Positions 16,714 to 64,000 are shown, counted from the stretch's first letter. The stretch: DNA of 64,000 nucleotides from an uncultured Candidatus Moduliflexus sp. (GCA_964602655.1 CAZRSF010000017.1:24116-88115); one strand, 5' to 3'. Program-made: numbers and translations. The notes: generated by a model from the sequence alone, not told the origin.

Positions 16714-16914
16714 TCATGCGACTCTCAAGCTTTTTACGGCATTCACAAGCGAAATCACGGCGCTTGCAATTCCTAAAAGCGTCATCGTCGAAGTGTCCGG
16801 CACCGGACTGATTTGATGTGGATTGATGATGTATGTGAGCGTCCCGACAATAAAATTTGCCAGGCAGAACAGATACATAAATGAAGCGAATGCATGTTTC
16901 ACCAGGCTTTGCAT
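16714..16914 (-). CDS. Small hydrophobic protein (2 predicted TM helices), hypothetical
   Basis: The RBS AAGGAGAG lies 8 nt upstream of the ATG at 16914. The protein is 66 aa and sits inside an AT-rich gene-poor region. Confidence 0.35.
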   Translation of the reverse strand: MQSLVKHAFASFMYLFCLANFIVGTLTYIINPHQISPVPDTSTMTLLGIASAVISLVNAVKSLRVA

Positions 16915-17496: not shown

Positions 17497-17703
17497 TTAT
17501 ACAGCACTATACGCCTGTTTCAATTTAAAAAAGTTCACCATAATTACGCGCAACAATCGTTTACAACAAATCGCTGTCAAAAAGACTATCAGCGTAGCAA
17601 GCAGATTGCCGCGTTTCGAAAGATTCGTTTCCAGTTTCTCCGTGATGACGGTAATGGCAGAGTCGAACTCGTCGCGTTCAGCCTTGCTTTTCAATGGAGT
17701 CAT
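17497..17703 (-). CDS. Small protein with a C-terminal TM helix, hypothetical
   Basis: The ATG at 17703 lies immediately downstream of a perfect 12-3-12 palindrome. The protein is 68 aa. The RBS is weak, so this call is speculative. Confidence 0.25.
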   Translation of the reverse strand: MTPLKSKAERDEFDSAITVITEKLETNLSKRGNLLATLIVFLTAICCKRLLRVIMVNFFKLKQAYSAV

Positions 17704-17710
17704 TCCGCGT

Positions 17711-17737
17711 GTATCCTGGATAGAGTATCCAGGATAC
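17711..17737. promoter_or_regulatory. Perfect palindrome GTATCCTGGATA-GAG-TATCCAGGATAC, operator-like
   Basis: The palindrome has 12-bp perfect arms, sits in an AT-rich intergenic region and abuts a small ORF start. Confidence 0.4.
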
Positions 17738-18099
17738 ACCCCCGGTGTTGGCCTATTTGTGAAATAATTGCTATGTCGTCATTGTGATTCACGATGTTTC
17801 TCCTTTATTAAAATGAATTAGTTCACATGGTCTCTCTCTCGCTCTGCTCCAAAGATGCCTGGGTCAGACATTCTCGGCGATAATACGGTAAGAATGGGGA
17901 ATGCGCGGCTTCTTGTTCTCCCCATTCTTGCCATTTACGAGATGAATAGCCACCTCTCCCCCGTTTCGTCCATCTTCCGTTTTCTCTTTGTGAAATATTT
18001 TTTATTTTATCATTTCTATTGACACAATCGGCGTGACTTTTGAGATTGATTGCAAAAGCAACCTTCTGCACTCTTCAACACATTTCATCGGAGGCGCGT

Positions 18100-26924: not shown

Positions 26925-27343
26925 TTGGCGTCCCTCCATGGCAGCCGCGCGGATGTATTGACCGAACAACTGCCCCCCTCCATGTGATATTATAAGAAGT
27001 GAGTACGGTCGAACTTTTTCGCCATTGTATCCTCCAGTAAAAAGGTGATTGATGCCTGAATATGGACGTGTCAGCCCTTTCCGCAAAAAGGGCTGACATT
27101 ATGACAGAACAAAGAGGATTACGTTAAAAAAATTAGGAAGGATTTCTGAAAACAGAGGAAACAGCCGAACGCCTCTCTGACTGTACTTTTGCCGACGTCT
27201 GACGCGGGGCAGCCTCAGCGTCTCTTGCGCAACATCGAAACGCCACTGAATTTTATTCCGCGCCCTCTGCGAAGTCGTCTGCAAGCGCATCGTTAGGAAT
27301 AGTCTCGCCCCCTGAGACTCCTTTCGTTATCCGAATTGATGTA

Positions 27344-27865
27344 TTAATCTGGTTGAATCACTCCATAGCTACCAAGTTGTTCCAATGGTATTGATGGCCA
27401 TCTTACTGGTAGTTCTAAATTCGTGATGTGATCTGTAATTTCCAATGGCCTTTTCTCAAAAAAGAATTGTTCTGTTTGAGCAAATACGTTATTTGAATTT
27501 TTTCTAAAAAGGATCGCTCGTATTTGTACATAATAGTATCCAGGCTTTTTTGTAAACGTATACGGAATCACGTTTTGATGTTCTGTTCTTTCACGGTCTA
27601 AATTGACAGTATCCATAATTTCATACGTATCTTTGATATATTGTTCCTCTGGATATGTTCCATGCGGAGGAGGATCATCTTTCCTCTTGACCGGAAAGAA
27701 TGCTAAACTGACGATCATTCCATAATTATGTGGAACGTCTTCAATAACAACGTTTCCAGTGATTGTTTTTTCCTGATGAAACCACCCCATAATTTTCTTA
27801 TTCCTCTCCTCACATGCGGTGAATAGCATTACACATGAAATAATAATACATGCTAATTTTCTCAA
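27344..27865 (-). CDS. Lipoprotein, hypothetical (AT-rich gene)
   Basis: The protein has a signal peptide with the lipobox FTAC. Its GC content is low compared with flanking genes. Confidence 0.5.
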   Translation of the reverse strand: MRKLACIIISCVMLFTACEERNKKIMGWFHQEKTITGNVVIEDVPHNYGMIVSLAFFPVKRKDDPPPHGTYPEEQYIKDTYEIMDTVNLDRERTEHQNVIPYTFTKKPGYYYVQIRAILFRKNSNNVFAQTEQFFFEKRPLEITDHITNLELPVRWPSIPLEQLGSYGVIQPD

Positions 27866-27987
27866 AGCACTCCCTTTTTATATGTGCGCTTTCCTAACAA
27901 GAGACGCTACTAACTTTCAATCAAACGTAATGGCGCAATGGAGTCAGCGTATTGTCAGTCATGAGGTTGTTCCTGTCGTTCTTTATT

Positions 27988-28986
27988 TCAAAAACTCACG
28001 CCGACCGTCGCGCCGAAATACATCTGGCGTCCTTCGACGGTCAAATCAATCCCGGTTGCGCCGCGTCCCTCGTCCTCGCCACCGTAAAAGGATTGCGTCT
28101 GATCCCCTTCGAGATCGTAGGCGGCATAATTCGCCAGCACGGAAAGCGACCGGTTCGGCGTGATATGCCAACGAAGATCGCCGCCGATAGCCCAAAACAT
28201 TCCATCGGTCTCCCCTGTGCTTAATTTCTGACGCAGCAGATGATCATCTTCATCTTTGCATGTTGCAATCGGGCTGAAAAGGCCATAGGCATTGACATCA
28301 ACGGCGCTATTCGGCACACTGGAAGAAAAAGCGACTCCGACATACGGCACATCTATTTTTTGCTGATACGTAATGCCGGTTCCCGGCAATTGCCCCTGAT
28401 AAAATTCATCAGGATCAATTGTCCATTGCTCTCCGTTTTTAGCCTCCCAATCCCATTGTGTGTAAGAAAATCCTAACAGAACTCCCAAAGACATTGTTTC
28501 ATTTGAGGGAAGCGCGGAGAGAATATCGTACCGCACATTGATATCAAAATGCTTTCCGTCCACAGACGAATCCGACTCAGAATAGATTGCCTTTTGGCTG
28601 CCGTAATAGCCATACAGCCAATCGCTATCCTTCATCGTACCGGTCTGATCATACACTGAAACCCAGCCTCCAGCGCTGAGCGTAAAACGATTTAATGGGT
28701 GGAACGACCCAACACCACCAATGTAAAGAGTTCCGTCTAACGGCCATTCCAATTCGCTTTTCCATCCCCCATCCTGTTTTCCTTCGATAGTATAGGTCAT
28801 CTGGCCGAATTCGACAAATGAAGAGAGCCCTAAGAAGAATCCTGACGTCGTTCCTTCCTCTTCGAACAAAGATGATGCGCTCACCGGCGGAATGGAGGCG
28901 ATCTGTCCCCAACTTACGGCAGGAAAAAATAAAGAAATGAGCACAAGAATCCCGCCTGCTTGACATTGTCTGAAAATTCGCTGCAT
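27988..28986 (-). CDS. Omptin-family outer-membrane protease (peptidase A26-like beta-barrel)
   Basis: The protein has a signal peptide and segments resembling E. coli OmpT (SELEW~SQLDW, AGGW, MKDSDWL~MVDQDWM, DEDDHLL~DNDEHYD catalytic Asp/His region). It ends in the terminal aromatic …GVSF typical of OM barrels. Confidence 0.6.
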   Translation of the reverse strand: MQRIFRQCQAGGILVLISLFFPAVSWGQIASIPPVSASSLFEEEGTTSGFFLGLSSFVEFGQMTYTIEGKQDGGWKSELEWPLDGTLYIGGVGSFHPLNRFTLSAGGWVSVYDQTGTMKDSDWLYGYYGSQKAIYSESDSSVDGKHFDINVRYDILSALPSNETMSLGVLLGFSYTQWDWEAKNGEQWTIDPDEFYQGQLPGTGITYQQKIDVPYVGVAFSSSVPNSAVDVNAYGLFSPIATCKDEDDHLLRQKLSTGETDGMFWAIGGDLRWHITPNRSLSVLANYAAYDLEGDQTQSFYGGEDEGRGATGIDLTVEGRQMYFGATVGVSF

Positions 28987-48721: not shown

Positions 48722-50032
48722 ATGGCACATCCTGAAATTATGGATAAAGTGGTGTCGTTATGCAAACGGCGCGGATTTATTTTTCAAAGCAGCGAAATTT
48801 ATGGCGGGTTGAATAGTTGTTGGGACTACGGCCCGTTGGGTGTCGAATTAAAGCGCAATGTCAAAGAAGCATGGTGGCGGTCGGTGGTCTATGAACGTGA
48901 TAATGTCTATGGTCAAGATGCCAGCATCCTGATGCACCCGGAAGTCTGGCGGGCATCCGGCCATATCGAAGGCTTTTCGGATCCATTAGTGGATTGCAAA
49001 AAATGCAAGCGGCGTTTCCGTGCAGACCATTTGGAAGACACATCAAAATGCCCGGAATGCGGCGGCGAACTGACCGAATCACGACAATTCAATTTGATGT
49101 TCAAGACATTTATGGGGCCGATTGAAGATACCGCCTCTGTCGTCTATATGCGCCCGGAAACGGCGCAAGGCATTTTCGTCAATTTTCTGAATGTCGTCAA
49201 TACGATGCGGGCGAAGCTGCCGTTCGGCATCGCGCAGATCGGCAAAGCGTTCCGCAACGAAATCACGCCGGGCAATTTTACGTTCCGCACCCGCGAATTC
49301 GAGCAAATGGAAATCGAATTTTTCGTCAAACCGGGCACGGACGACGAATGGCTGGAATTTTGGAAAAATGCGCGTTTCGACTGGTATCTCCGCTACGGCA
49401 TGACGAAAGAACGGCTGCGGCTGCGCCAGCACGACAAAGACGAATTAGCGCATTACGCCAAAGATTGTTACGACGTGGAGTACGAATTCCCCTTCGGTTG
49501 GGCGGAATTGGAAGGCATTGCCAACCGTACCGATTTCGACTTGACGCAGCATCAGACCTTCAGCAAGAAGAATTTGACCTATTTCGAGGAAGAGAGCAAG
49601 TCGCGCTTTATTCCCTATGTCATCGAACCGTCTGCCGGGGCAGACCGCTCGACATTGGCGTTTCTGGTAGATTCGTACCATGAAGAACCGGAGCGTGTCG
49701 TGTTGCGCCTGCATCCGAAACTCGCGCCGGTGAAAGCGGCGATTTTCCCCTTGATGCGCAAAGACGGGCATCCTGAAAAAGCGCAGGAAATCGAACGGAT
49801 GCTGCGCCCGCATTTCAACGTCGAATATGATGAAACCGCCTCCATCGGCAAACGGTATCGCCGACAGGACGAAATCGGCACGCCGTACTGCGTGACGGTG
49901 GATAATGAAACGATGGACAATGCCACTGTGACCGTGCGCGAACGCGATTCGATGGAGCAGGTGCGAATTCCGATTTCCGGCCTCCTGCCGATGCTGTTAG
50001 AACGCCTGAATGCGGAAAAACAGATCGCGTAG
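48722..50032 (+). CDS. glyQS: Glycine--tRNA ligase (dimeric class II type)
   Basis: The GlyRS N-terminus (…RRGFIFQSSEIYGGLNSCWDYGPLG…), class II motifs and anticodon-binding domain are present. Confidence 0.95.
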   Translation: MAHPEIMDKVVSLCKRRGFIFQSSEIYGGLNSCWDYGPLGVELKRNVKEAWWRSVVYERDNVYGQDASILMHPEVWRASGHIEGFSDPLVDCKKCKRRFRADHLEDTSKCPECGGELTESRQFNLMFKTFMGPIEDTASVVYMRPETAQGIFVNFLNVVNTMRAKLPFGIAQIGKAFRNEITPGNFTFRTREFEQMEIEFFVKPGTDDEWLEFWKNARFDWYLRYGMTKERLRLRQHDKDELAHYAKDCYDVEYEFPFGWAELEGIANRTDFDLTQHQTFSKKNLTYFEEESKSRFIPYVIEPSAGADRSTLAFLVDSYHEEPERVVLRLHPKLAPVKAAIFPLMRKDGHPEKAQEIERMLRPHFNVEYDETASIGKRYRRQDEIGTPYCVTVDNETMDNATVTVRERDSMEQVRIPISGLLPMLLERLNAEKQIA

Positions 50033-50275
50033 AATGACAGATCGATATGCCCGATTGCAGGGGCCTTCGATTGAACGCCCCTGCGAAAAATCCTTTTAAA
50101 AAAAATTGACTGGTAACAAGAGAAAAAATGAGCAGATTGCGTATTTCTCATTGACAAAATAAAAAAAATTTTTTACCATTGAATAAACAATATGAAATGA
50201 CAATTGTCCAACTGACAAATTTTTTTACAGATGGGCAATTTTATCTATAGATGTAATATCCTAGAGGCGTAACGT

Positions 50276-51292
50276 ATGTTAAACATGTTCAGATGGTTTT
50301 CGAAAGACCTCGCCATTGATTTAGGGACGGCAAACACACTCGTGTACTTGCGAGGCAAAGGGATTGTGATGAATGAGCCGTCGGTTGTGGCTACTGATAC
50401 CCGTACCGGAAAGATTGTGGCTATCGGACACGAAGCCAAAGCGATGTTAGGGATGACGCCGGATCAGATTATGGCGGTTCGTCCGATGAAAGATGGTGTG
50501 ATTGCCGATTTCAGAATGACAGAAGCGCTCTTGCGCCACTTCATCAAAAAAGTGTGCAGTAACTTTTTGATTCGTCCGCGCGTTGTGGTGGCTGTGCCGT
50601 TCGGGATTACCGAAGTCGAGAAAAAAGCGGTGAAAGATTCGGTCATTCAGGCCGGAGCGAGCGACGTGACCTTGATTTTAGAACCGATGGCCGCCGCATT
50701 GGGCGCTGGGCTGCCGATTCAAGAGCCGTCGGGCAATATGATCGTTGACATCGGCGGCGGCACGACTGAAGTGGCCGTCATTTCACTTTCAGGAATCGTG
50801 TACAGCCGCTCGATTCGGATTGCAGGCGATGAAATGGATGAAGCGATCATTCAGTACATCAAACGGAAGTATAATTTGCTCATTGGCCTCAAGACCGCAG
50901 AAATTATCAAAAAGACGTTAGGATCGGCGTATCCGCTGGATTCTGAAAAAGTGGTCGAGGTGCGCGGACGCGATCTGGCTGGCGGCGTGCCGAATGTGAT
51001 GAAGATTTCCAGTGAAGAAATTCGCGACGCGCTGGCCGAAACGGTGTTTGCGATCATCGAAGCGATTCGCGTGACGTTGGAACGCACGCCGCCGGAATTG
51101 TCCGCTGACATCATTGATCGCGGCATCATTCTAACGGGCGGGAGTTCCTTGCTGAAAAATTTAGATTTTAAGATTAAAGAAGAAACCGGCCTGCCGGTTG
51201 CGCTTGCAGACGATCCACTGACGACAGTTGCCATCGGAACCGGCAAAGCGATGATGGATCCGGAATTGCTGAAAAAACTCGCGATCTCATAA
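50276..51292 (+). CDS. mreB: Rod-shape-determining actin homologue MreB
   Basis: The actin-fold motifs are present ([10 protein letters not shown]…, …[15 protein letters not shown]…). Confidence 0.9.
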
Positions 51293-51336
51293 ACAGAATC
51301 GTCGGGGCGTTCAATTGAACGCCCCGACGATTCTGT

Positions 51337-52488
51337 TTATTCCGACGAAGAATTCGGCGCGGCGACGCCGATTTTATTGAAGATTTTTTGTTTGACTTGC
51401 AAATCGAACATTTTCCATTTTAAATCCTCGTAGTCATTGCCATAAGTTCCGGCCAAAAAACCGACCGGAATGGCAAATCCACCGGCTTCCTGTTTCCCTC
51501 CGCCGAAATATTCGCCATTCTCGCTCTTGCCGAAGGCTTCTTTGATGAACGCATCCGCGTCAATCGTCAGTTTTGACGTGCGGAACGACCCGCTGAGCAG
51601 TTCTTCTTGATTATCGTTGACGACGATGCCATAGACAATGACGGTATGCACATTTTCTTCCGTCAGCAGAAAATCCGCCGCCTGCGCAATCGCGTCGCGC
51701 TCTTCCTGACGAAGATAGCCGATGCCGGAAATACTGTAATTGTCTTTGATCACGCGATTCGCCAAGGCTTTTTCAATGACGTCCATCACTTTTTTCGACC
51801 GCGCCTGCATCACGATTTCGCTCAGCAGATTCGGATTATAGTAATTGCTCAAATAGGCCGCCGCCAGCAGATCGTGCTCGTTCGCCCGGATAAAATCGTT
51901 CGTATCGCTGCGAATGCCATGTATTAAGGCGGTTGCGCATTTGACATGGAACGAGTCGGTCTTATCCAATTCGATCAGTCCTTGCTGCAAGTAGCTGGTG
52001 TAAATCGTCGCCGTCGCGCCGATTTTGCGAATATCATGAAATTCCGGCGACAGGCCGCCAGAACGTTCGTGGTGATCAACAACAATAATCGGCTTGATAT
52101 TGTGCGCTTCAAGTTTTTTGGTCAGCGCGGTGGTTTTCCCCTGGTTATCCACAAACACGCTGCCCTGGTAGCGCGAAAAATCTATGACGTTGTTTTCGGA
52201 ATGACGAATCAACTCGACATTCAATAATTTGACTAACGCAATATTCTGCTGATGGCTGATGCGTCCGGCATAGACGATGTCCACCTCGATGCCGTAATTC
52301 AAACAAATCAGTTTATGCGTCAGCGCGGAGGCAATCGCATCGGGGTCTGGAAAATCCTGAATCGCCACAATATGCGTTTCTCCGCGATGCGCCTCCAAGA
52401 CATCGCGCAGTTTTTCGACTTTCTGGCTGCCGTGAAGCGCCGCAGTCGTCTGTTTGACGTTTTCTTTCACGTCTTCTGTCTCTGACAT
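51337..52488 (-). CDS. DHH/DHHA1-family phosphoesterase (NrnA-like)
   Basis: DHH motifs are present (…VVDHHER…) with a DHHA1 C-terminal domain. The ATG at 52488 is preceded by AGGGG. Confidence 0.75.
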   Translation of the reverse strand: MSETEDVKENVKQTTAALHGSQKVEKLRDVLEAHRGETHIVAIQDFPDPDAIASALTHKLICLNYGIEVDIVYAGRISHQQNIALVKLLNVELIRHSENNVIDFSRYQGSVFVDNQGKTTALTKKLEAHNIKPIIVVDHHERSGGLSPEFHDIRKIGATATIYTSYLQQGLIELDKTDSFHVKCATALIHGIRSDTNDFIRANEHDLLAAAYLSNYYNPNLLSEIVMQARSKKVMDVIEKALANRVIKDNYSISGIGYLRQEERDAIAQAADFLLTEENVHTVIVYGIVVNDNQEELLSGSFRTSKLTIDADAFIKEAFGKSENGEYFGGGKQEAGGFAIPVGFLAGTYGNDYEDLKWKMFDLQVKQKIFNKIGVAAPNSSSE

Positions 52489-52625
52489 ATATTTTCCCCT
52501 GTTTTGACCCGAATACATACATCAAACCGCCTGACATCCGTTCAGAATGCTCTCCGGTTCATGTACAAAAAGCGCCACCCCGATTTCTCAGGGCAGCGCT
52601 CGCGTAATCATTTTCCTCCAAAACG

Positions 52626-55280
52626 TTACGCTGACCAGGACTCCACGACCTGAAACACTTTGTCAAGCGCTTCAGAAAGTTTTTCAGGGGATTTCCCCCC
52701 TGCCTGCGCCATATCCGGGCGTCCTCCTCCGCTGCCTCCGATCAAACCGGCAATCTCTTTGACAATATTGCCTGCATGATATGTCCCGACAAGGTCTTTC
52801 GTGACAACGGAAATCAGCGACACGCGCTCGCCGTCTTCCACTGTCGCCAACACCACGATCCCGGAATGAATCTTGCTTTTCAATACATCCGCGAAATTTC
52901 GCAGCCCTTTCGCGTCAAGATGCTCAACGCGAGCGGCGATGACTTTGATCCCGCGAATCTCTCGCGCCTGTTCGATCAGCGTATCGGTTTGCAGCGTCGC
53001 CAATTTCATTTTCAACCGTTCGACTTCCCGTTCCTGTTCTCTCGATGCGGCCAGCAATTTCTCGATCCGCGCGCTCACTTCTTCCGGCGATGATTTCAGC
53101 AGCGCCGTCGCCCGGCGAAGCTGCTGCTCTTCCTGCTGAATATACGCCAATGCCGTTTCGCCGGTGACGGCTTCGATGCGGCGCACGCCAGCCGCCACGC
53201 TGCTTTCGCCCAGCAGCTTGAACATGCCGATTTCGCCGGTCGCGACCGCATGTGTGCCGCCGCAGAGTTCCATGCTCAAGCCGGGAATCTGCACCACGCG
53301 CACTTTGTCGCCGTATTTATCCTCGAAAAACGCCAACGCGCCCATATCCAACGCTTCATCCAGCCCGACTTCCTTTGTTTCCACCGGTGTATTGGTGCGA
53401 ATACCGTCGTTGACGATGGTTTCGATACGCTGCATCTCGTCCTCGGCAATCGCGGAAAAATGCGCGAAGTCGAAACGGAAACGCTCCGGTGTGACGAATG
53501 AACCGGCCTGTTTTACATGATCGCCTAACACGTCGCGCAGCGCGGCGTGGAGCAAGTGCGTGGTCGTATGATTGCGCCGCGTCCGTTTGCGCCGCGCCTC
53601 ATCTACGCGGATCGTCAGCTTCTGCCCCGCGCGGAGTTCGCCGCGTTCGACGAGCAGATGATGCACGAACAACTGCGGCACGGGTTTCGTCGTATTGGTA
53701 ATCACCGCCGCCGCGCTGCCGTCCGCCGCCGCGATGACGCCCGTATCGCCGATTTGCCCGCCTGATTCGCCGTAGCATGGCGTCGTGTCGAAAATCACTT
53801 CCACGCGATCTCCGGCGACAGCGGAGTTGACAACCTGCTGATCTTTGAGAATGGCGAGAATCGCGGCGTCATGTTCTTCCAAGCGCTGATAACCGGTAAA
53901 ACGAGTGGCAGGAATCGAATTCGAGAGGGTTTTGTAAATTTCGGAGATCGCCACCTCGCCCGAACCTTTCCAGGATTCGCGGGCGCGACTGCGCTGGGCG
54001 TTCATTTCCCGGTCGAACGCCTCCATGTCAATCGTCAAATTGTGGTCTTTGGCGACATCTTGCGCCAAATCGAGCGGAAAACCGAACGTGTCATATAATT
54101 TGAAAATTTCTTTGCCATCCAATGCCGAATTCTGCTGCCGTTCGGTCGCCTCGACCAGCTTGTTCAGCAAATCCAACCCCTGATTCAGCGTATGCCCGAA
54201 GCGGCGCTCTTCGTTCAGCGTCACTTGTACGACATGCTGATAATGGTCGGCGATTTCGCGGTATTCGTCTTTCATGGCGTCAACCACGACCTGAATCCCT
54301 TTATGCAGGAACGGTTCGGTAATGCCGAGCATTTTGCCGTGTCGAGCGGCGCGGCGCATGATGCGGCGCAACACGTAGCCGCGCCCGTCATTGGCGGGCA
54401 GCACGCCGTCGCTGATCAAAAACGTCGTGGAACGCAAATGATCGGCAATGACGCGCATGGACGCGCTATCCTGCGGGTTATCGCCGTATGTCTTGCCAGA
54501 AATTTCTTCCGTGAATCGCAGCATCGGCGCAAACAGGTCGCTTTCGAAATTGCTGTGTTTGCCCTGCATAACGGCAGCCACGCGCTCCAACCCCATGCCG
54601 GTGTCAATGCTCGGTTTCGGCAGCGGCGTCAACGTGCCGGAGGCATCGCGGTCGAATTGCATGAACACGAGGTTCCAAAGTTCGAGATACCGGTCGCAAT
54701 CGCATTTGCCGATGCCGCAATTGTCTCCGCAGCGCATCTCCTCGCCTTGATCGATCAAAATTTCGGAACAGGGGCCGCACGGCCCGGTGTCGCCCATTGA
54801 CCAGAAGTTATCTTTTTTCCCCATGCGAATAATCCGTTCGACTGGTACGCCGATCATGTTTTTCCAGAGGTCGAAGGCTTCGTCGTCGTCCTGATAGACC
54901 GTCGCCCAGAGGCGATCTTTCGGCAGCCCCAGTCTGCCGGTCAGAAATTCCCAGGCGTACTGAATCGCGTCTTTTTTAAAATAATCGCCGAAGGAAAAAT
55001 TGCCCATCATTTCGAAAAACGTATGATGGCGGGCGGTATGCCCGACATTTTCCAGATCGTTATGTTTTCCGCCAGCCCGAACGCAGCGTTGCGCGGTTGT
55101 GGCGCGGGAATAGCCGCGTACATCGTTGCCGAGAAACACATCTTTGAATTGCACCATCCCGGCATTGGTAAATAATAATGTCGGATCATTCTGTGGAACT
55201 AAGGAAGAACTGGGAACGATGGCATGTCCTTTTTCTTCGAAAAACTGTAAAAATTGCTTCCGCAACTCGCGTCCTGTCAT
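52626..55280 (-). CDS. alaS: Alanine--tRNA ligase
   Basis: The protein is 884 aa with the AlaRS catalytic core, the editing-domain HxxxH/CxxxH motifs and a C-terminal DHHA1-like domain. Confidence 0.95.
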   Translation of the reverse strand: MTGRELRKQFLQFFEEKGHAIVPSSSLVPQNDPTLLFTNAGMVQFKDVFLGNDVRGYSRATTAQRCVRAGGKHNDLENVGHTARHHTFFEMMGNFSFGDYFKKDAIQYAWEFLTGRLGLPKDRLWATVYQDDDEAFDLWKNMIGVPVERIIRMGKKDNFWSMGDTGPCGPCSEILIDQGEEMRCGDNCGIGKCDCDRYLELWNLVFMQFDRDASGTLTPLPKPSIDTGMGLERVAAVMQGKHSNFESDLFAPMLRFTEEISGKTYGDNPQDSASMRVIADHLRSTTFLISDGVLPANDGRGYVLRRIMRRAARHGKMLGITEPFLHKGIQVVVDAMKDEYREIADHYQHVVQVTLNEERRFGHTLNQGLDLLNKLVEATERQQNSALDGKEIFKLYDTFGFPLDLAQDVAKDHNLTIDMEAFDREMNAQRSRARESWKGSGEVAISEIYKTLSNSIPATRFTGYQRLEEHDAAILAILKDQQVVNSAVAGDRVEVIFDTTPCYGESGGQIGDTGVIAAADGSAAAVITNTTKPVPQLFVHHLLVERGELRAGQKLTIRVDEARRKRTRRNHTTTHLLHAALRDVLGDHVKQAGSFVTPERFRFDFAHFSAIAEDEMQRIETIVNDGIRTNTPVETKEVGLDEALDMGALAFFEDKYGDKVRVVQIPGLSMELCGGTHAVATGEIGMFKLLGESSVAAGVRRIEAVTGETALAYIQQEEQQLRRATALLKSSPEEVSARIEKLLAASREQEREVERLKMKLATLQTDTLIEQAREIRGIKVIAARVEHLDAKGLRNFADVLKSKIHSGIVVLATVEDGERVSLISVVTKDLVGTYHAGNIVKEIAGLIGGSGGGRPDMAQAGGKSPEKLSEALDKVFQVVESWSA

Positions 55281-55389
55281 AATAATATGACGACGTTATG
55301 CAATAGTATAAACGACCCCTGGCAGGGTGCGAAACCCTGCCAGGGGTGGGGTCTATATTCGTGAATAACGCCGTCGGCATCTCACAAGG

Positions 55390-56604
55390 TTAAAATTTGG
55401 TAAACATGGTACTGTCTGACGATGAATCCGAGGGTTTATTTTCCGACGGAGCTTTGAACACGTTCGCATCCGCCTTTTTATCAGCCGCCATTGACTGTAC
55501 GCTCTCTTCGGTGGACTGAATCCCCTTGACTTTCAACGAGAAATCCGCCGGACGCGTACAATTCAACACCGCTTCGTCGTACGTAATCAAATCTTGCCGG
55601 AACAAATCCAATAACGCCTGATCGAACGATTGCATCCCGTATTGCGACCGCCCCGCTTCGATATATTCCGGGATACGGATGGTTTTTTCCGGTTCGATGA
55701 TGGCCTGCTTGATAATATCGGTCGCGATCATGACTTCGACGGCGGGAACGCGACCCTTGCCGTCTTTTTTCGGGATCAAACGCATAGACAGCGAGGCTTT
55801 TAAGACTTCCGCCAGTTCCAGACGAATCTGGTTTTGCTGATAGGCCGGAAACATGGAAATAATGCGGTTCACTGTCCCCATCGCGTCCGCCGTATGCAGC
55901 GTGCTCATCACGAGATGTCCGGTTTCGGCGGCAGTGATCGCGGTTTCAATCGTCTCGCGGTCACGCATTTCTCCGACAAGGATAACGTCCGGGTCTTGTC
56001 GCAGCGCGCTGCGTAACGCTGTCGCAAACCCTTTGGTATCCGCGCCGACTTCGCGCTGATTGATTAAGGCGCGTTGATCGCGGTGCATATACTCAATCGG
56101 GTCTTCAATCGTGATGACATGCACATCGAGATTCTGATTGATATGTTGAATCATCGCGGCCAACGAGGTTGTTTTACCGCTGCCGGTGATGCCCGTCACC
56201 AGAATCAATCCGCGCGGCTCTAAGGAGAGTTGATTGAGAATCGTGGGCAAACGGAGTTCTTCGACCGTTTTGATCGTGGTCGGAATGGCGCGAAACACGA
56301 TCCCGACGCTGCCGCGCTGCAAGAACGCGTTGCAGCGAAATCGCCCTAAGCCGGGAACGCTGTGCGCAAAATCAATTTCGAAATTATCGTTAAAAATCGT
56401 TTTTTGCTTTTTGTTTAAAATCTGAGACGCAACAGCGACCGTATCCTCGCGTTGAAGCCGAGGCATTTCTTTCAAAATGTGCAAATCGCCATTGATTCGT
56501 AATACCGGAGGATTTCCGACTTTCAGATGCAAGTCCGACGCCCCACGTTCTACCATAACTTTCAAAAGGTCTTGAATATTCATACGCTCACGAGCGAATG
56601 TCAA
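55390..56604 (-). CDS. pilT: Type IV pilus retraction ATPase PilT/PilU family, with a ~45-aa low-complexity C-terminal extension
   Basis: Walker A GITGSGKTT is present with Asp/His boxes typical of PilT. No other pilus genes are adjacent. Confidence 0.85.
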   Translation of the reverse strand: MTFARERMNIQDLLKVMVERGASDLHLKVGNPPVLRINGDLHILKEMPRLQREDTVAVASQILNKKQKTIFNDNFEIDFAHSVPGLGRFRCNAFLQRGSVGIVFRAIPTTIKTVEELRLPTILNQLSLEPRGLILVTGITGSGKTTSLAAMIQHINQNLDVHVITIEDPIEYMHRDQRALINQREVGADTKGFATALRSALRQDPDVILVGEMRDRETIETAITAAETGHLVMSTLHTADAMGTVNRIISMFPAYQQNQIRLELAEVLKASLSMRLIPKKDGKGRVPAVEVMIATDIIKQAIIEPEKTIRIPEYIEAGRSQYGMQSFDQALLDLFRQDLITYDEAVLNCTRPADFSLKVKGIQSTEESVQSMAADKKADANVFKAPSENKPSDSSSDSTMFTKF

Positions 56605-56801
56605 AAGTCATCACGACTTCCATCATCGCCCCTATTCCCTTGCGATATATCTCGACAATGTTGACAGGACGTTATCACCGCCGCCGCCATAACAGATTCG
56701 TTCCTATCATGTCGAAGAATTTCTTTGCTGTCAACTGAAAAGACAGTTTTCTGAAGAAAATCAGATTTTTCTGCCGCTATCGCATTCCTCAATCAGATGT
56801 G

Positions 56802-57515
56802 TCAATGTCGGCTCTCGAAAAATGGAAGAAATAATTGTCGAATGCCCCGCAAAATCGTATCAATCCGATACGGAAAATTCATCGCATATACATCAAGCAA
56901 AATCACGGCATTCGCAGGCAAATCCGAATGGCTGGCAGACCTGAGGCGATCCGATACTGCCCGGTTCACCACATGAATATTCTTATAAATCGCCTCAAGC
57001 CCGCTTAAATCGCACGCAACATTTTTTCCCTCCTTTTTCAAAAAATATTGAGAGAGCAAATACATCGAGGCTGCCCGCCAGATCGTCTCTTCCACGTTCG
57101 CAAGCGGAAGATGGAAACGCGCCATCGGCCTGAAAAAATTGGTATGCGGACATCCGCTGTTGGCGATAATCAATCCTAATAACGAACTCACCCCTTGCTG
57201 CGCGCTGGTGGCCTGGGAAATGACGCGCTCTTTCGTAATAACGTCCATGTAGATGCGCTCATACGACAGGAGTCGGTCGAACCGGTTGACGACATGTGAA
57301 ATTTTCGCCGCATACGGACAATAGGCGTGTTCCGCTTCCGTTAACGGGCAGTTCGGACATTGATAAAACGACAGCCGCGTCCACTCCGGCAACGGCGAGG
57401 GAGACGGCATTTCTACCAGTTCCAGATTCTCGGCGAGTAATTCGAAATGAAAAATTTCCCGCGAACCGTCAGGGAGAGAAAAACGATATTCGATTGATAC
57501 CGTATCCATAGACAA
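56802..57515 (-). CDS. Hypothetical protein with a CxxC…C…C cluster (CPNCPLTEAEHAYCPY)
   Basis: The ORF is 237 aa. Apart from the Cys cluster I recognised no domain. Confidence 0.45.
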   Translation of the reverse strand: MSMDTVSIEYRFSLPDGSREIFHFELLAENLELVEMPSPSPLPEWTRLSFYQCPNCPLTEAEHAYCPYAAKISHVVNRFDRLLSYERIYMDVITKERVISQATSAQQGVSSLLGLIIANSGCPHTNFFRPMARFHLPLANVEETIWRAASMYLLSQYFLKKEGKNVACDLSGLEAIYKNIHVVNRAVSDRLRSASHSDLPANAVILLDVYAMNFPYRIDTILRGIRQLFLPFFESRH

Positions 57516-57520
57516 ACCGC

Positions 57521-58123
57521 TTAATAAGGAGAACGGGCGGAGTCCGGAGGACAGACAGACTCGCGCTGCTTCATGAAAATCGGCGGTGTGGTTGGGTCAA
57601 GGACAAAGACATCCGACCAGAAAATTGTTGGAATACTCGGTGTGGCATAGCGAATCACCGGCCCATCGTCATACAGCCCGACCGCGTCGGCAGCGATTGC
57701 GCCGCGTTGCAGCAAAACGTTCTCAAGACGAGCGTCTGAATCCAGCGTGAGCGTGAGACGTACCGGCGTATCTGCTTGAAACGCGATATGCGACGGCAGC
57801 GACGCGTCTGTTTCGTCCGCGATGCCCGAAAAGAAACCAGTGTCGCTGCTCTGCGTTTCTGTGTAGGTCAACAGATAGTCTCCCGCTTCAGGAATGTTGA
57901 CGCATAATAATTCGGCGCGCGCCTGCCACTCGAATTCCTGAGACGCGGCGTCCCCTGCCGCGAAACCGGACAGCGGATACGCGCCCCCCGATAAGGGCGA
58001 GATCGGCGCTTGTTCGTCATAATCCAGCGTGTTGCATCCCGGATTGACGGCAAGCAGCATCGCAAGCGCGATCCATTGGAATCGTTTTTGCCAAACACAG
58101 GTAGTTCTGTTGATATCGGTCAT
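57521..58123 (-). CDS. Lipoprotein, hypothetical
   Basis: The protein has a signal peptide with the lipobox NPGC. Confidence 0.5.
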   Translation of the reverse strand: MTDINRTTCVWQKRFQWIALAMLLAVNPGCNTLDYDEQAPISPLSGGAYPLSGFAAGDAASQEFEWQARAELLCVNIPEAGDYLLTYTETQSSDTGFFSGIADETDASLPSHIAFQADTPVRLTLTLDSDARLENVLLQRGAIAADAVGLYDDGPVIRYATPSIPTIFWSDVFVLDPTTPPIFMKQRESVCPPDSARSPY

Positions 58124-58200
58124 AAAGAAAGATTCTCCTCACAACAGAGCGTCTTTTGTCAATTGAAAAATGAGGGATTTCTTTCTCATAACCGTGTCAT

Positions 58201-58380
58201 ATAGGAGAAATGATGGAAGAGCGTTTACCGAATATTCATCCTGACGAAGTATTAGAAGAAGAGTTTTTACAACCGTTGCATATGTCAGCGTCGCGGTTAG
58301 CGCAGGCGATCCGGCTGCCGCAACGCCGATTCGAAAAGCAGCTTACGCGAATTGACCATTTTCAGAGGATGCCCGGCTGA
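58201..58380 (+). pseudogene. HigA-like (XRE-HTH) antitoxin gene remnant, truncated or frameshifted after ~50 aa
   Basis: The translation MEERLPNIHPDEVLEEEFLQPLHMSASRLAQAIRLPQRRFEKQL… matches the HigA N-terminal pattern (IHPGEILxEEFLxPLGLS…LA.ALGV) but ends at 59 aa without the C-terminal helices. No toxin gene is adjacent. Confidence 0.5.
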
Positions 58381-58539
58381 TTTATTTCTCCGCGTCAAGT
58401 CCCCACACGCGCCCATTATACGACACGCGGGCGACCGGCCTGCCGTTTTCGGTCAACTCCCCGCCCGACCAATTCCCGCCGCCGAGGTCGTACTGTTCGA
58501 TATAAGCGCGGCAGGCGGCGCTGATTTCTTTGAATTCGA

Positions 58540-59790
58540 TCACAATTTCTTTATATCTGGAATTCCGGCTCTGCTGTTATGGGAATATAATTTTTGCAGA
58601 AAATCGTTTTTGTATGGATCATCAAAACTACAAATAAAACTTAATACAATTTCTTTTCCTTGAAATAAAAATATATCTTTATACTCCATCTGTTTAGGTG
58701 TTTTAGGATATTTTCTCATTTCATTAAATTTATCTAATTTATCTTTGGGAAGAGATTTGGACAATTTATCTATCACCTCTTCAGAAAGATACTGTTGTAT
58801 AATGATTTTGGATTTAAAAATTGCCACAAAATCAATCAGATTATTTTCTATAGATAACGCTGGGAAAAGATGCCAGGAAGGTTCTTTGAATTCTTTAATG
58901 CTTTTCCTCGCTTCTGATTTTAAGGCTAACTCTTGATTATCGAATTGCTGCAATTCAATAAGTTCAAGATATTTCGTGCTGCCTTGTTCAATGTCGCAAG
59001 CGGGGGTGATGACAATCCCATATTTAAGAATCTTTCCAGTATCGAATCTTACAATATCGCCATTACGAATCATTGTTGCATCTGATTCGTAATAAAGCAT
59101 TTTATTCAGGATGTATCTTCGTTTTTCATCTTTCCCAATGCTCTTAGCAAAATCTCGCGCATTTCGTAAAAGTTGCTTCAAATCACCAGTAAATCTGGTA
59201 TTTTTGACCAACTCTCGATGAATAAGATTTAAGATAAAATCATTACTCCAATCTATATTTTCTTCTTCTCCAATAAGAAATTTGAGGAGAGCAGCAATAT
59301 CCTGATTTGGAAGTTGCATTAAATCGAAAAAAACTTTTTCGATTCCGCCTCTGATGACTTGACGATATACATTGCTGATTTGGGCTGTTAGCGATTGTTG
59401 AAACCATTGAGAAATTTTTTGTTCAAGGATAATTGAAGAGACATTTTCTTTAGAAATTGCAGTAATCAATGCTTTCGGGTAAGAAATTTCATCTCTTAAA
59501 ACGCTTTCATCATAATTTGAAATATGATTTGACCAAATAAAGACGGGAATAAAATATCTGTTTTGCAAATGCTTTAAAACTAAGAGACTCAACAAATGGT
59601 TCTGTTCTTCTAAATACCAGTCTAAAATAACCACATCAAAGTTGATGCCAGAATCAAGAATTGTAATCGCGTCATCTTTTGTTCCACAGCAGTGAAGAGT
59701 AATCTGGTTTTGTTGAAAGTCTTCACGTAATGTTTCTTCAAAATCAAGATAGTCATCATCAATAAGTAGCACTCGCTGTACGTTATTCAT
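58540..59790 (-). CDS. Response regulator: N-terminal REC domain fused to an uncharacterised ~300-aa C-terminal output domain
   Basis: REC hallmarks are present (VLLIDDD…, phospho-acceptor context DVVILDWYL, PVFIWS). GGAG lies 9 nt before the ATG at 59790. The start overlaps the upstream kinase stop (ATGAATAA). Confidence 0.7.
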   Translation of the reverse strand: MNNVQRVLLIDDDYLDFEETLREDFQQNQITLHCCGTKDDAITILDSGINFDVVILDWYLEEQNHLLSLLVLKHLQNRYFIPVFIWSNHISNYDESVLRDEISYPKALITAISKENVSSIILEQKISQWFQQSLTAQISNVYRQVIRGGIEKVFFDLMQLPNQDIAALLKFLIGEEENIDWSNDFILNLIHRELVKNTRFTGDLKQLLRNARDFAKSIGKDEKRRYILNKMLYYESDATMIRNGDIVRFDTGKILKYGIVITPACDIEQGSTKYLELIELQQFDNQELALKSEARKSIKEFKEPSWHLFPALSIENNLIDFVAIFKSKIIIQQYLSEEVIDKLSKSLPKDKLDKFNEMRKYPKTPKQMEYKDIFLFQGKEIVLSFICSFDDPYKNDFLQKLYSHNSRAGIPDIKKL

Positions 59791-61921
59791 TATGATTCTC
59801 CGTAAATGTGATTTTGAACGATGCTCCTTGTAATAAACCGATTTCTGGATAATCATCTTTCGATACAAGGGCAATATCCCAATTCTTCTCCTCTAAAATT
59901 TCTTTAACAATATACAAACCAAGCCCCCGTCCATCCTCAATTTTTGTAGTGAAAAACGGTTCGAAAATTTTATCTTTATACCGCGAAATCACTCCAGAAC
60001 CACTATCCGAGACAAACACAGAAGATGTTTTGGCATCAAGAATAATCCGAATACTACGTTTATCCAGTTCGGATTTACGCGACAACCAGAAAATTGCGTT
60101 ATCAATCAGATTGTTAAAAATCTGCATACAAGAGCCTTCTCGCATTTTTACGATAAAACTTTCTCCCTGCATTTCAATCTGAATAGATTCTTTTTCTAAC
60201 CAACGCTCTTGTAAAGCTATCGTATTTTCAATAATCTTCCGGATCTCTAATTCTTTTTCATTTGCAACCTTTTTAACGTAAAACATTGGACCTAAAAGAC
60301 GAATATCATTTCGTAATGCTTCTAAGGAGCTATAGAGCAAATCGAGTTCTTTTTTGATCTTCGGGGATAATGGATCAAGAAATTTTTTGAGTCTTCCTAA
60401 CGCATCAAGAGCGCCACGCACCAGACGAGCAAATTCATGCGTAAATCGTTCAGCGGCTAAACCTGTCCCTGCAAGACTAAACAATGTCTCTTTTTCCTGT
60501 TTCTGTGATTCAAAAGACTCTTTTACTTCTTCCTCAAATGTTGTGATCTCATTCACAGAATTCTCAAGAATCGCGGCAACTTTGACATTATTTTCTTTGT
60601 GACTTTCTGCAAGCTTATCTGCTAAAGTTGAAAGTTTTGTTTTCGCCTGTTGAAGAGGTTCACTATTATAATCCTGTTTTTTTTCTTTTTTCGGCCTATC
60701 TGCTAAACGCTCGTGCTCTAACACTTGTATTGTAGCAAGAACAAGCTCTCGAAATTGATGAAATGCAAGGTTTTCAATTAATCCTTCACGATTGGTCTTA
60801 TCTTTTAAAAGTTGATTTTCGATCTGGTTGACCTCAATCATGCCAATTATTGTTTTATTGTCAATCTTTCCTGTCGGATCTTGCACTCTTCTTTTATCCA
60901 ATTCAAGCCAATCATCACCTCTCTCTCCGTAAGGAAGAATTCGTATTCCATCCCTATAAATACTCACTCCACACAACTCTTCAATATCTTTTTTAATCAC
61001 CCCTGATTTTTGCAACCATTCAGGAGATTTATCATAATTATGCAAATTAACAATAAAGCTACCACAAATAAGTTCTTCTTGTATTTTGAGGGAATATTCT
61101 TTAATTAGATTAATTTGCCCATTTTTTTGAGTTGGTTTATATCCTGGAACAAAAAAATAATATTCAAACTCAAGTACACCTTGAGTATCTACTATGCCCC
61201 AAAATTTATAATGAGCTTTTTCTAAAATGTCAGAGATTTCAAGGTTTCCATATTTCAGAAATTCTTCTGGACAATCTTCAATTTTCAAAGTGACATCAAA
61301 ATCAGTTGCTCCTTTGAATGGACTTTTCATTCTTTTTAAAGTATTAGCAACACGTTTTATATCAGTCTCAGTCCAATTCGATTTCAAATGAGAAATCTCT
61401 AATAATACTCCTGATTCTTCCTGTTGAAATTCTATTAATGATCTTTCTGCATAACCTATTTCAATATCGTTCAGGTCTTTTCCTTCCACATCAAATTCTT
61501 GCCAGTCAATAGAAACTACTAACTCAATATTAGAATCTTTTACTTTAGAAATCAACGTCAGTGTATTTCCGATCTGTTGAGCTGCAAATCTTCCCACTCC
61601 CTTTTCCCCTAATGGAAGCCTACCCAGTAGTGTTCTTTCTTGTTTGGCTTTTTGCTTTTCTTTATGACCTGAGGCAGGATTCATCCACTTCGTAAGAAAA
61701 GTTTCTGTATCCATCCCACAACCATCATCTCTAATAGTGATCTTTGCGCTAGAAGTATTTAACGCAACCATACTCACCTGAACAGAGGTTGCATCAGCAT
61801 CGTAACTATTTTTAACGAGTTCTACAAGCCCAACAGAAGCGTCCTTGATCAGTTGTTCTCCAAGAATCTGGATTAATCTCGCTTTCGGGGTAAAAGCCTG
61901 TTTGCCTGTTTTCATATTCAT
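59783..61921 (-). CDS. Fusion protein: N-terminal MORC/HATPase_c_3-type GHKL ATPase, central linker, C-terminal histidine kinase (DHp-like H-box + HATPase_c)
   Basis: The N-terminus reads …LVELVKNSYDADAT…ITIRDDGCGMD… (GHKL Bergerat fold). The C-terminus has a candidate H-box (ERFTHEFARLV), an N-box (QIFNNLIDNAIFW), G1 (DSGSGV) and G2 (GRGLGLYIVKE). The start codon directly abuts the HerA stop (TAAATG). Confidence 0.8.
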   Translation of the reverse strand: MNMKTGKQAFTPKARLIQILGEQLIKDASVGLVELVKNSYDADATSVQVSMVALNTSSAKITIRDDGCGMDTETFLTKWMNPASGHKEKQKAKQERTLLGRLPLGEKGVGRFAAQQIGNTLTLISKVKDSNIELVVSIDWQEFDVEGKDLNDIEIGYAERSLIEFQQEESGVLLEISHLKSNWTETDIKRVANTLKRMKSPFKGATDFDVTLKIEDCPEEFLKYGNLEISDILEKAHYKFWGIVDTQGVLEFEYYFFVPGYKPTQKNGQINLIKEYSLKIQEELICGSFIVNLHNYDKSPEWLQKSGVIKKDIEELCGVSIYRDGIRILPYGERGDDWLELDKRRVQDPTGKIDNKTIIGMIEVNQIENQLLKDKTNREGLIENLAFHQFRELVLATIQVLEHERLADRPKKEKKQDYNSEPLQQAKTKLSTLADKLAESHKENNVKVAAILENSVNEITTFEEEVKESFESQKQEKETLFSLAGTGLAAERFTHEFARLVRGALDALGRLKKFLDPLSPKIKKELDLLYSSLEALRNDIRLLGPMFYVKKVANEKELEIRKIIENTIALQERWLEKESIQIEMQGESFIVKMREGSCMQIFNNLIDNAIFWLSRKSELDKRSIRIILDAKTSSVFVSDSGSGVISRYKDKIFEPFFTTKIEDGRGLGLYIVKEILEEKNWDIALVSKDDYPEIGLLQGASFKITFTENHNE

Positions 61922-63571
61922 TTACTCCGTATGTTCACGTTTACTTGAGCAAGGCCGCATACTTGTCATAATCGGATGCTGAAATTGAGGCGAAACAATT
62001 ATACAATTTCCTTGTCCTAAAGTAGGGACTTCATCCCAAACAGATTCATTAACGCTACCAGCCGATGTTTTTAATACTTTGAGGTTATGACTGCCGGTTG
62101 TCTGGTGAATAACTTTAGTATTACACAATTCATAAATTTCATCGGGCAGGTGTGATGGCTGTTGAGAGATAAAACAGAGTCCTAACCAACGTTTTCTTCC
62201 CCGTCGAGCGACTTCACGTAAGCGATCCAGCAGAGCTTCCATTTTGCTGGCATTTTCTCTACTGACAAAGGTATGCGCTTCTTCGATGACAATTAAGGTC
62301 GGCGGTAAATTCTCGTCATGGATTTTTTGATCAAACACCTTTCTTAGAAGATAAGCGATTACAATATTATTAACGCGGACATTATAGGAATTACTTAAAT
62401 CAATTACGCTTACTTTTCCTGGTCTGATTAATGCCGTAGGATCAAGATATTCTTCCGCTAAATCAAAGATGCCAAACCTTTTTAGGCGTTCTAATAATCT
62501 TTTAACAACAAACCATGAAGATTTATCTGCCCCATTTGCTGAATTTATATGATCATTTACAGATTTAACTACATCTTTTAACGTAAGATCAGGGTAATCC
62601 TCATCTTCAAGAAATTCATTCTCTTCGAGAGCTTTCCATTGATTAGAAGATGACTTTTTCTTTTGCGCTTTATCTCCATTACAAATCCGATCTCTCACTT
62701 CATTCCATGCACTAATAAATCGGTCTTCCTGATTTTCATTCATCCCCATAATCGCTGATAATTCATAGGGGGAAAGACTTCCAAATGGAATTCCGAATTC
62801 TATAGCATCTTTTCTTTTTGTCTCTGTTGCCAAAGGAAAATATACCTGAAAGTCATTCAACCCTTTGGCAGTAATTTTAAAACGTTCTGCAATTTTTTGA
62901 AATTCTTTGTTTTTAAGAATTTCTTCAGATGGATAATCCATTGAGATATACTCACCTTCTACATCAAGAACAATTACTGCCCAACCTGCTGAACTTGCCT
63001 CTTCAATAAGTACTTGTGAGGAATTTGTTTTTCCAGACCCAACAGTTCCGAATATTCCTGTATTTCTTGGAAGAACTGATTTTTTATTACCATCGAAATG
63101 AACTCGAATATCGCCATACCCACTAAGTTGGCCGAGATACATGTTTCCTTGCAGACGAAGCAAGTCTTCTATTTTTTCAGGCGGTAATGGAAATATAGCA
63201 GACTTTGGGCGTGGTCTCGTTTGAACGCTTGATAAATTCGCAGAAGTAAGGTTAAAAAGGCCGAGCAGTTCTACAAAACAAATACCATGATAATCTGGCA
63301 AAAATCCAATTTTACCAGCCTGAATAATTGCCGTTTTAGCAAACGCAGATTCACGGCTCACAGCATCAGGCGTATAAAAAGGGCCTTTAACAATCCGTGC
63401 CAAATAAAAATGCTCTTCTTTACTGGATTCAACAATGACATATTTCCCTCTGAAGATTTCCTTAATTTTATCAAAAGGAACTCTGATTTCCACTTCGTTA
63501 TTCGACCCGCCAGGCGCTGAATCAAAATTAACAAATCCAATTGCGTGTTCTTTTGCAAAACCTGTTTCCAT
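61922..63571 (-). CDS. herA: HerA-like FtsK/HerA-superfamily ATPase (HAS-barrel N-domain + ATPase core)
   Basis: Walker A GTVGSGKTN, Walker B LIVIEEAHTF and the HerA-type ISQQPSHLPDEIYELCNTKVIHQ motif are present. AAGGAG lies 8 nt before the ATG at 63571. Confidence 0.8.
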   Translation of the reverse strand: METGFAKEHAIGFVNFDSAPGGSNNEVEIRVPFDKIKEIFRGKYVIVESSKEEHFYLARIVKGPFYTPDAVSRESAFAKTAIIQAGKIGFLPDYHGICFVELLGLFNLTSANLSSVQTRPRPKSAIFPLPPEKIEDLLRLQGNMYLGQLSGYGDIRVHFDGNKKSVLPRNTGIFGTVGSGKTNSSQVLIEEASSAGWAVIVLDVEGEYISMDYPSEEILKNKEFQKIAERFKITAKGLNDFQVYFPLATETKRKDAIEFGIPFGSLSPYELSAIMGMNENQEDRFISAWNEVRDRICNGDKAQKKKSSSNQWKALEENEFLEDEDYPDLTLKDVVKSVNDHINSANGADKSSWFVVKRLLERLKRFGIFDLAEEYLDPTALIRPGKVSVIDLSNSYNVRVNNIVIAYLLRKVFDQKIHDENLPPTLIVIEEAHTFVSRENASKMEALLDRLREVARRGRKRWLGLCFISQQPSHLPDEIYELCNTKVIHQTTGSHNLKVLKTSAGSVNESVWDEVPTLGQGNCIIVSPQFQHPIMTSMRPCSSKREHTE

Positions 63572-63584
63572 AGTTCTTCTCCTT

Positions 63585-64000
63585 CTACTTTTGACGTAAG
63601 GAATCTTCTGGCATTTCGGAAAGAAACTCTCCTTCTTGCGCAAGTTTAAACTCAACAATATTATTAAAATCTGTTGCCTTAAACAAAGTTGAACAGAGGT
63701 TATCCGCATAATCAATTAATAACGGAAATCCTTTTTCTCTTTGAAACATTGCATCTCTGGCAATAATTCTTGCGGCCTGTTCGAAATAATCCTGATGTGC
63801 ATGGAAAACATAAGGACGCTGAGAGATTTTAATGATTCCAATAAGAATTTTAGAAGCTTCTTGCTTTAAAAAGTGAGTCATTCTAAGCAATTCTTCTTCT
63901 CGCCATTTGTCTTTTGCCATAAAATCTTCATTTCTCAATAATTCCATTCCAACATTTGTATGCTTTAATAAAAAATATTCTCCTGAATTTAATGCCATAC
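63585..64000 (-). CDS. Partial CDS (C-terminal ≥138 aa) of an unknown protein immediately upstream of the HerA-like gene; the 5' end lies outside the window
   Basis: The ORF is open to the window edge and ends 13 nt before the HerA start. I could assign no domain from the visible part. Confidence 0.5.
   Translation of the reverse strand, partial: MALNSGEYFLLKHTNVGMELLRNEDFMAKDKWREEELLRMTHFLKQEASKILIGIIKISQRPYVFHAHQDYFEQAARIIARDAMFQREKGFPLLIDYADNLCSTLFKATDFNNIVEFKLAQEGEFLSEMPEDSLRQK

Follow-up and report, generated by a model that had tools for sequence, protein, structure and literature searches.

HigA antitoxins belong to type II toxin-antitoxin (TA) systems of the HigBA type, in which the gene for the cognate toxin, higB, is usually located upstream of higA. 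Remnants of genes are common at the edges of genomic and defence islands and at integration hotspots.

TCS-like modules consisting of HEF_HK and Response_reg_2 proteins have been linked to C5-methylase R-M systems and to paraMORC ATPases (Bellieny-Rabelo et al. 2021, PMC8011034). The locus described here is part of a 64,000-nt stretch of DNA from an uncultured Candidatus Moduliflexus sp. (GCA_964602655.1 CAZRSF010000017.1:24116-88115), which is called the window in the following. The 350 bp between a lipoprotein gene and an AT-rich defence island in this window probably consist of two stacked dead gene fragments that originate from successive recombination at a variable hotspot.

Conserved DNA and the variable site

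The DUF6901 protein encoded in the window retrieved two sister genomes, Candidatus Moduliflexus flocculans UASB14 (L006) and a Moduliflexus MAG (L007), with a protein identity of 81%. According to blastn, synteny extends from position 50098 to 58189 with strain UASB14 and to 58169 with the MAG, and then ends. The last conserved DNA is the upstream region (58124-58190) of the lipoprotein gene (57521-58123, minus strand), and a three-way alignment of the window with both genomes diverges after ...TTTCTTTCTCAT. In strain UASB14, the lipoprotein gene and the next gene, which is a different one, are separated by about 290 nt of unrelated non-coding DNA; neither higA, nor the small gene described below, nor the island is present at this site, and the genes of the right flank of UASB14 (a gene for 227 aa and lgt) were not found elsewhere in the window. 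The same site, which follows the lipoprotein/DUF6901/pilT block, has three different contents in the three genomes and represents a variable hotspot of Candidatus Moduliflexus genomes.

In UASB14, a long GC-rich imperfect palindrome (L006:9020-9150; …GTTACGCAGC…CCCCTCC…GGAGGGG…GCTGCGTAAC…), possibly a repeat element or a terminator, is located at the site. The MAG (L007:1-130) diverges from both other genomes directly after the upstream region of the lipoprotein gene, and its contig stops after another 130 nt with a hairpin repeat (AGACCTCACAGG…CCTGTGAGGTCT); it represents the third state of the hotspot. The DUF6901 gene itself (56802-57515, minus strand) is flanked by the lipoprotein gene and a gene for a PilT-like ATPase, and relatives of its product are found from Moduliflexus to Aminicenantes and Desulfobacteraceae MAGs with 49-54% identity.

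Because synteny stops upstream of higA, both the higA remnant and the small-gene fragment are located in variable DNA. The first-pass annotation had considered the beheaded gene a resident one and had placed the left boundary of the island at about 58540. The comparison with relatives lacking the island, which it had suggested as a check, could be made with UASB14, which has neither the island nor higA nor the small gene. A resident gene does not agree with the outcome of this comparison, since both sister genomes are devoid of the small gene and of higA and synteny ends at about 58170-58190. This is the border between core and variable DNA, and the region 58521-58545 is an internal junction of acquired layers instead of the island boundary. 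The end of the core DNA is thereby fixed at about 58190 and the start of the AT-rich module at 58521-58545.

The higA remnant

The first layer contains a 56-codon ORF with an ATG start (higA'; 58210-58380, plus strand). The ORF as such had been recognized before, with its start placed at 58201. Residues 2-43 of its product (58213-58338) resemble HigA and comprise the N-terminal helix, helix 2, and the start of the recognition helix, while the final ca. 13 codons have no relation to HigA. The product matches positions 3-38 of the 81 positions of the NCBIfam model TIGR02607 (antidote_HigA) with an E-value of 2.2e-7 and 30.6 bits, which is below the curated cut-off of 47.7 bits, and a Pfam search returned no HTH family at E<=0.1. 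Solved HigA/VapI structures from the PDB align with residues 3-42. An exhaustive phmmer search of 1.84 billion representatives yielded 323 hits at E<=0.001, nearly all of which cover residues 3-43 or thereabouts with 45-66% identity; a word-index search retrieved no sequence other than the HigA fragment used as the query.

With a HigA profile of 104 nodes, which was built from 15 intact homologues, only nodes 2-43 were found in the window (54.8 bits). Nodes 44-104, which represent the C-terminal ca. 60% of the family, were detected in none of the six frames of 58150-58620, and a search of all six-frame ORFs of at least 20 aa in the whole window with this profile returned nothing besides higA'. 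Intact relatives read on as 'RISEIVxGKRxITADTALRLSRYFGTSxxFWLNLQxxYDLE', whereas higA' has RFEKQLTRIDHFQRMPG* at this position. As the profile stops at node 43 and the rest is found in no other frame, higA' has been cut short and not frameshifted. This agrees with the former description of a match of about 45 aa followed by early termination. Two apparent continuations were rejected: the profile has no match in the +2 frame, where 'PADLFLRV' resembles 'TADTALRL', and the similarity of the minus-strand segment NSRYKEIVIEFKEISAA to HigA nodes 38-54 has a score of -0.4 and is taken as chance.

A HigB-like ORF was not found near higA', as had been noted before, and the neighbouring small ORFs have no Pfam match; only 86 nt separate higA' from the divergent lipoprotein gene. 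Judged by its sequence, higA' is a truncated pseudogene remnant and neither a naturally short nor a working member of the family. Its HigA-homologous part is separated from the stop codon of the small ORF by a spacer of 43 nt (58339-58381, GC content 0.51), which includes the non-homologous tail and the stop codon of higA'. The spacer shows no match to the HigA C-terminus in any frame and, among the fetched loci, is matched only by L005, an identical Logan contig of 10.2 kb that has been assembled separately. A conserved pair of higA and the small gene was considered and rejected, as in the fetched loci none of the small-gene homologues has a HigA-like ORF beside it.

The small-protein gene fragment

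The second layer contains a small ORF on the opposite strand (58382-58543, minus strand), which has 53 codons when read from a GTG start and belongs to an unnamed family with the pattern CRAYI...LGGGNW...SYNGRVW. The minus-strand frame had been recognized correctly, although with the coordinates 58383-58535. That it continues into the AT-rich island and meets a stop only there is confirmed, as the frame is open up to 58576; the claim that it has no proper start is not, as an in-frame GTG at 58543-58541 overlaps the TGA of the upstream gene. The GC-rich core of the ORF, which is securely homologous to the family, comprises 58402-58521.

Among 5.8 billion proteins, 26 homologues of the small ORF were found (best E-value 5e-17), almost all of which have 80-93 aa, and the relationship is far beyond chance. 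The family has the pattern 'M..V.LS...NPD.G.Y....V.V....EAS..CRAYI....LGGGNWTGG.V...G..VARVSYNGRVW'. In the alignment, the ORF in the window begins at about the position of 'EAS..CRAYI', and the first ca. 34 residues including the conserved NPD segment are absent; with an HMM of the family (87 nodes), it matches nodes 29-82 with 84.9 bits. The closest protein relative has 85% identity. At the DNA level, the locus L004 has 94% identity to the ORF across 120 nt, which are exactly the positions 58402-58521, and this homology begins at about node 38. Since intact members have 80-93 aa, the copy in the window has lost about 34-43 codons at its N-terminal end. The family core is retained in all invariant (N24, S41-R45) and all near-invariant columns.

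When an intact member was modelled with AlphaFold2 (pLDDT 87.6), two strands (residues 3-7 and 31-35) were predicted together with a helix (38-51) and a C-terminal hairpin; by this model, the ORF in the window would keep only the part from the helix onward and would have lost both N-terminal strands. The family has no match in Pfam, in NCBIfam, or among annotated PHROGs, and a fold search against the PDB gave nothing significant (best E-value 0.98) and only a faint resemblance to protein G B1. From these comparisons, the small gene in the window is a beheaded copy that has lost its 5' codons. The beheading that had been proposed in the first-pass annotation is therefore upheld, as intact relatives have 80-93 aa with the NPD segment and the break coincides with the GC shift.

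Members of the family are encoded as hypothetical proteins on plasmids of Microvirga, Bosea, Peribacillus, and Nitrogeniibacter and are also found in phages of Dolichospermum, Stenotrophomonas, and Xanthomonas. On metagenomic contigs, they adjoin genes for DUF932 proteins, D12 methylases, or AAA/CHAT/MmeI-type proteins. The small gene is thus accessory and associated with mobile elements. In the Stenotrophomonas and Xanthomonas phage proteins, the family core is joined to different N-termini. In Stenotrophomonas phage A1432 (L020:2465-3199) and Xanthomonas phage DoCa5 (L021:2426-2704), the match comprises HMM nodes 28-81 (strand 2, helix, and hairpin) and is part of longer hypothetical proteins, whose CDSs are annotated with about 244 and 92 aa, respectively, beside genes of nucleotide metabolism. 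Because two phages carry nodes 28-81 with another N-terminus, the family core may fold alone. As a by-product of the analysis, a so far unannotated family of small proteins has been defined that is widespread on plasmids and in phages.

The junction with the AT-rich island

The GC content of the DNA to the left of the site (1-58189) is 0.51. It is 0.49 in the HigA-like part (58210-58338) and 0.675 in the core of the small ORF (58402-58521), and falls to about 0.32 (0.318) at 58521/58522. The following stretch (58522-58543) has a GC content of 0.32 and the island (58544-64000) one of 0.35. This confirms that a GC-rich frame meets an AT-rich island (0.675 in the core versus 0.35 in the island). 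The best estimate for the junction between the GC-rich fragment and the island is 58521|58522 with a zone of 58522-58545; the junction is placed at 58521-58545 because the protein alignment permits homology up to the GTG at 58543. This GTG (58543-58541) and the TGA stop (58542-58540) of the last gene of the island share the sequence GTGA. Overlap of a start codon with the stop codon of an upstream gene is a classic arrangement for translational coupling.

Short repeats around the junction are at chance level, and no tRNA gene was found in 50000-64000. The available sequence extends to 64000 in the window and to the equivalent of 65669 in L005, and both end within the island. Further dips of the GC content compared to about 0.51 are present in the window at 16001-18000 (0.43) and 27001-28000 (0.405) and may mark acquired segments.

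The last gene of the island (58540-59790, minus strand) encodes a Response_reg_2-like protein of 416 aa from its ATG with a weak match to PF19192, which is referred to as RR-like protein. With a coverage of 100%, 75 homologues of 392-406 aa were found. At the junction, the protein ends with ...AGIPDIKKL*, whereas all aligned homologues (35/35) have '...NSRVG(I/T)PDIK.L' followed by another 1-6 residues, and the island shows no 3' non-coding end at this point. Because the last gene of the island ends 1-6 residues before 35 out of 35 aligned homologues, the junction resembles a scar of a deletion or an illegitimate recombination and not a clean insertion. An insertion of about 19 residues (EEVIDKLSKSLPKDKLDKF) in the RR-like protein is absent from all 35 aligned homologues.

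The island (58540-64000 together with L005:1-2085) consists of five genes in one direction, which encode a C5 DNA methylase (beyond the end of the window), a protein of 358 aa without any family match, HerA (ORF of 597 aa), a GHKL protein, and the RR-like protein. The paraMORC-like GHKL protein contains HATPase_c_3 and HATPase_c and a weak HEF_HK match; in Pfam, neither HEF_HK nor Response_reg_2 reaches its cut-off. In another genome (L033:524-10206), the pair of GHKL and RR-like genes follows genes for a PLD-nuclease/helicase protein of 1052 aa (DUF3427) and a GmrSD enzyme instead of HerA and methylase genes, and the RR-like gene is likewise the last one in the operon, with the downstream genes on the opposite strand. 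Due to these other partners, the pair is regarded as a portable two-gene module. A scan of metagenomes with the RR-like protein for other copies of the island returned nothing.

Recurrent truncated copies of the small gene

Further copies of the small gene that are truncated at the 5' end were found in three loci, all of which are TA-dense arrays (DUF4160/DUF2442, YoeB, VapB, TumE, BrnT). The locus L004 has one copy that is cut at exactly the same nucleotide as in the window, and a second piece of 39 nt; its 94%-identical copy is joined to DNA that is entirely unlike that of the window. In L019, the copy starts at HMM node 55. In L024, three copies are cut about 10, 10, and 5 nt further 5' than in the window, with breakpoints defined against the related intact copy L023. 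In L024, invariant residues of the copies are no longer conserved (N to K in GGGNW, W to Y, and one copy cut short), which suggests that these copies are decaying. Potential start codons are present at some short copies, namely ATG in L004 and TTG in copies 1 and 2 of L024, the latter behind a repeated promoter-like segment. A normally short gene in relatives had been named as a finding that would contradict the beheading; short copies do exist (L004, L019, L024), but they resemble decaying fragments.

The locus L024 (200-3815) also contains repeated divergent promoter-like modules of 82-86 nt (two of 82 nt and three of 86 nt), each with a TTGACA motif. They part TA cassettes (TumE, BrnT, and others); in two cases, an 86-nt copy drives a truncated version of the small gene.

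Independent junctions, at least four in number (the window, L004, copies 1 and 2 of L024, and copy 3 of L024), fall within about 10 nt of each other and always leave the 3' fragment in the same orientation. Mobile TA and defence cassettes could repeatedly recombine or attach just 5' of the CRAYI codons, which we regard as distinctly unlikely; if so, the AT-rich island would have arrived in this way as well. By analogy, the copies would resemble the arrays of displaced 3' gene ends that are left by integrative elements replacing the 3' end of their target gene. The clustering of breakpoints may reflect either a recombination hotspot or a retained core with the size of a domain. An attC site or integron cassette was also considered for the repeated 120-nt fragment and rejected: the region 58330-58550 folds no better than shuffled sequences (z = +1.39), and neither Rfam hits nor a notable inverted repeat were found around it. 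Because it has no hairpin structure, the 120-nt segment is not attC-like.

Formation of the locus

As the three layers have GC contents of 0.49, 0.675, and 0.35, respectively, three origins are assumed. According to the favoured explanation, the first layer would be the first ca. 43 codons of a HigA-type antitoxin gene, with the HTH cut inside the recognition helix and without a HigB partner. The second layer, on the opposite strand, would be the 3' half of a small gene that is usual on plasmids, in phages, and in TA/defence arrays and has lost about 34-43 of its 5' codons. The third layer would be the AT-rich island, whose terminal gene abuts the small-gene fragment. The junction at 58521-58545 would have been formed by a deletion or an illegitimate recombination that clipped both partners, and probably not by a clean site-specific insertion into an intact resident gene; the order of these events is suggested by composition only. 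Neither fragment is expected to be functional, and the 53-codon ORF, including its GTGA-coupled start, most likely arose incidentally when the junction was formed.

Alternatively, a single clean insertion of the AT-rich island could have split an intact resident small gene, the 5' half of which would then be located at the right end of the island. The small gene is indeed truncated at its 5' end, which faces the island, and the truncation point coincides with the GC shift. In addition, UASB14 has no island, and the right end of the island, where the 5' half could be located, lies beyond the available sequence. Nevertheless, this explanation is unlikely: neither sister genome has the small gene or higA, and the family is tied to mobile elements. 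The terminal gene of the island ends at the junction, before all 35 aligned homologues, and is not followed by a 3' non-coding island end, and the 94%-identical copy in L004 has the same cut nucleotide but entirely different adjoining DNA. From the former claim that the island had inserted into a gene and thereby beheaded it, the beheading can be retained, while a clean insertion is doubtful in view of the clipped last gene of the island.

It has also to be considered that the 53-codon ORF is a functional core-only version of the small protein, which is coupled to the RR-like gene via GTGA and may serve the island as a recruited accessory. Such a mini-protein is conceivable because the core residues, including every invariant one, have been retained and because its GTG overlaps the upstream stop codon; furthermore, short copies with potential starts recur in L004 and L024, and phage proteins carry the core with other N-termini. 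Several observations make this very unlikely. The GC content of the fragment (0.675) is foreign to the island (0.35), and a linkage to the RR-like gene is not seen elsewhere: in L033, the RR-like gene is followed by genes in the opposite orientation, and in one other fetched module a match to the small family was not found. The loss of invariant residues from the truncated L024 copies suggests decay, and two predicted β-strands are gone from the copy in the window. Neither a promoter-like site for the 53-codon ORF nor, by eye, a Shine-Dalgarno sequence upstream of its GTG was found. Finally, the seven nucleotide differences between the window and L004 cause four amino-acid changes, which is no clear sign of purifying selection.

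An assembly chimera, in which DNA from two organisms was joined at a shared short sequence, is extremely unlikely: although the window seems to be a metagenome-derived contig and the GC step is very sharp, L005 crosses the junction at 100% identity with about 3 kb to the left and about 7 kb to the right, which speaks against a chimera even though this contig may stem from the same reads as the window and would then be non-independent, the junction yields an ordered stop/start overlap, and the GC-rich fragment of about 120 nt has no second copy within the window.

Returning to two stacked gene fragments as the favoured explanation, the biology of the locus is ordinary, with pseudogene fragments stacked at a variable hotspot beside a defence island. 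An annotation as pseudogene fragments is appropriate for higA' as well as for the 53-codon ORF, and the main value of these results lies in annotation and in the interpretation of the neighbouring island.

Comparison with described systems

Like the gene neighbourhoods described in PMC8011034, the island encodes a C5 DNA methylase and, downstream of it, a GHKL protein and then an RR-like protein. In contrast to these modules, HerA and the 358-aa protein are encoded between the methylase and the pair, and a term search of the main text of PMC8011034 returned no mention of HerA as a partner.

The N-terminal ca. 42 residues of higA' resemble the HigA antitoxins of HigBA type II TA systems (TIGR02607; 3trb, 6f8s, 7csv), with which it has the helix (L)PxIHPGE(I/V)L.EEFL and the start of the HTH, 'S..RLA.A..VP..R', in common at 50-66% identity to library members. 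Unlike these antitoxins, higA' lacks model positions 39-81, which correspond to the remainder of the recognition helix and all later helices, scores below the cut-off, has HPDE instead of the HPGE motif that is conserved in the family (G to D), and has no higB upstream. The unnamed small family and the copy in the window have all core residues in common. This copy has 53 aa versus 80-93 aa in intact members and, unlike these, is devoid of the NPD segment and of the two predicted β-strands.

A site-specifically integrated island would have an integrase gene and direct repeats at both ends, often beside a tRNA gene; in the available sequence, which ends within the island, none of these could be demonstrated, and 50000-64000 of the window contains no tRNA gene. 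The site resembles the gene remnants known from island edges in general in its sharp compositional step, in the combination of truncated accessory genes with a TA remnant, and in a site content that differs among the sister genomes.
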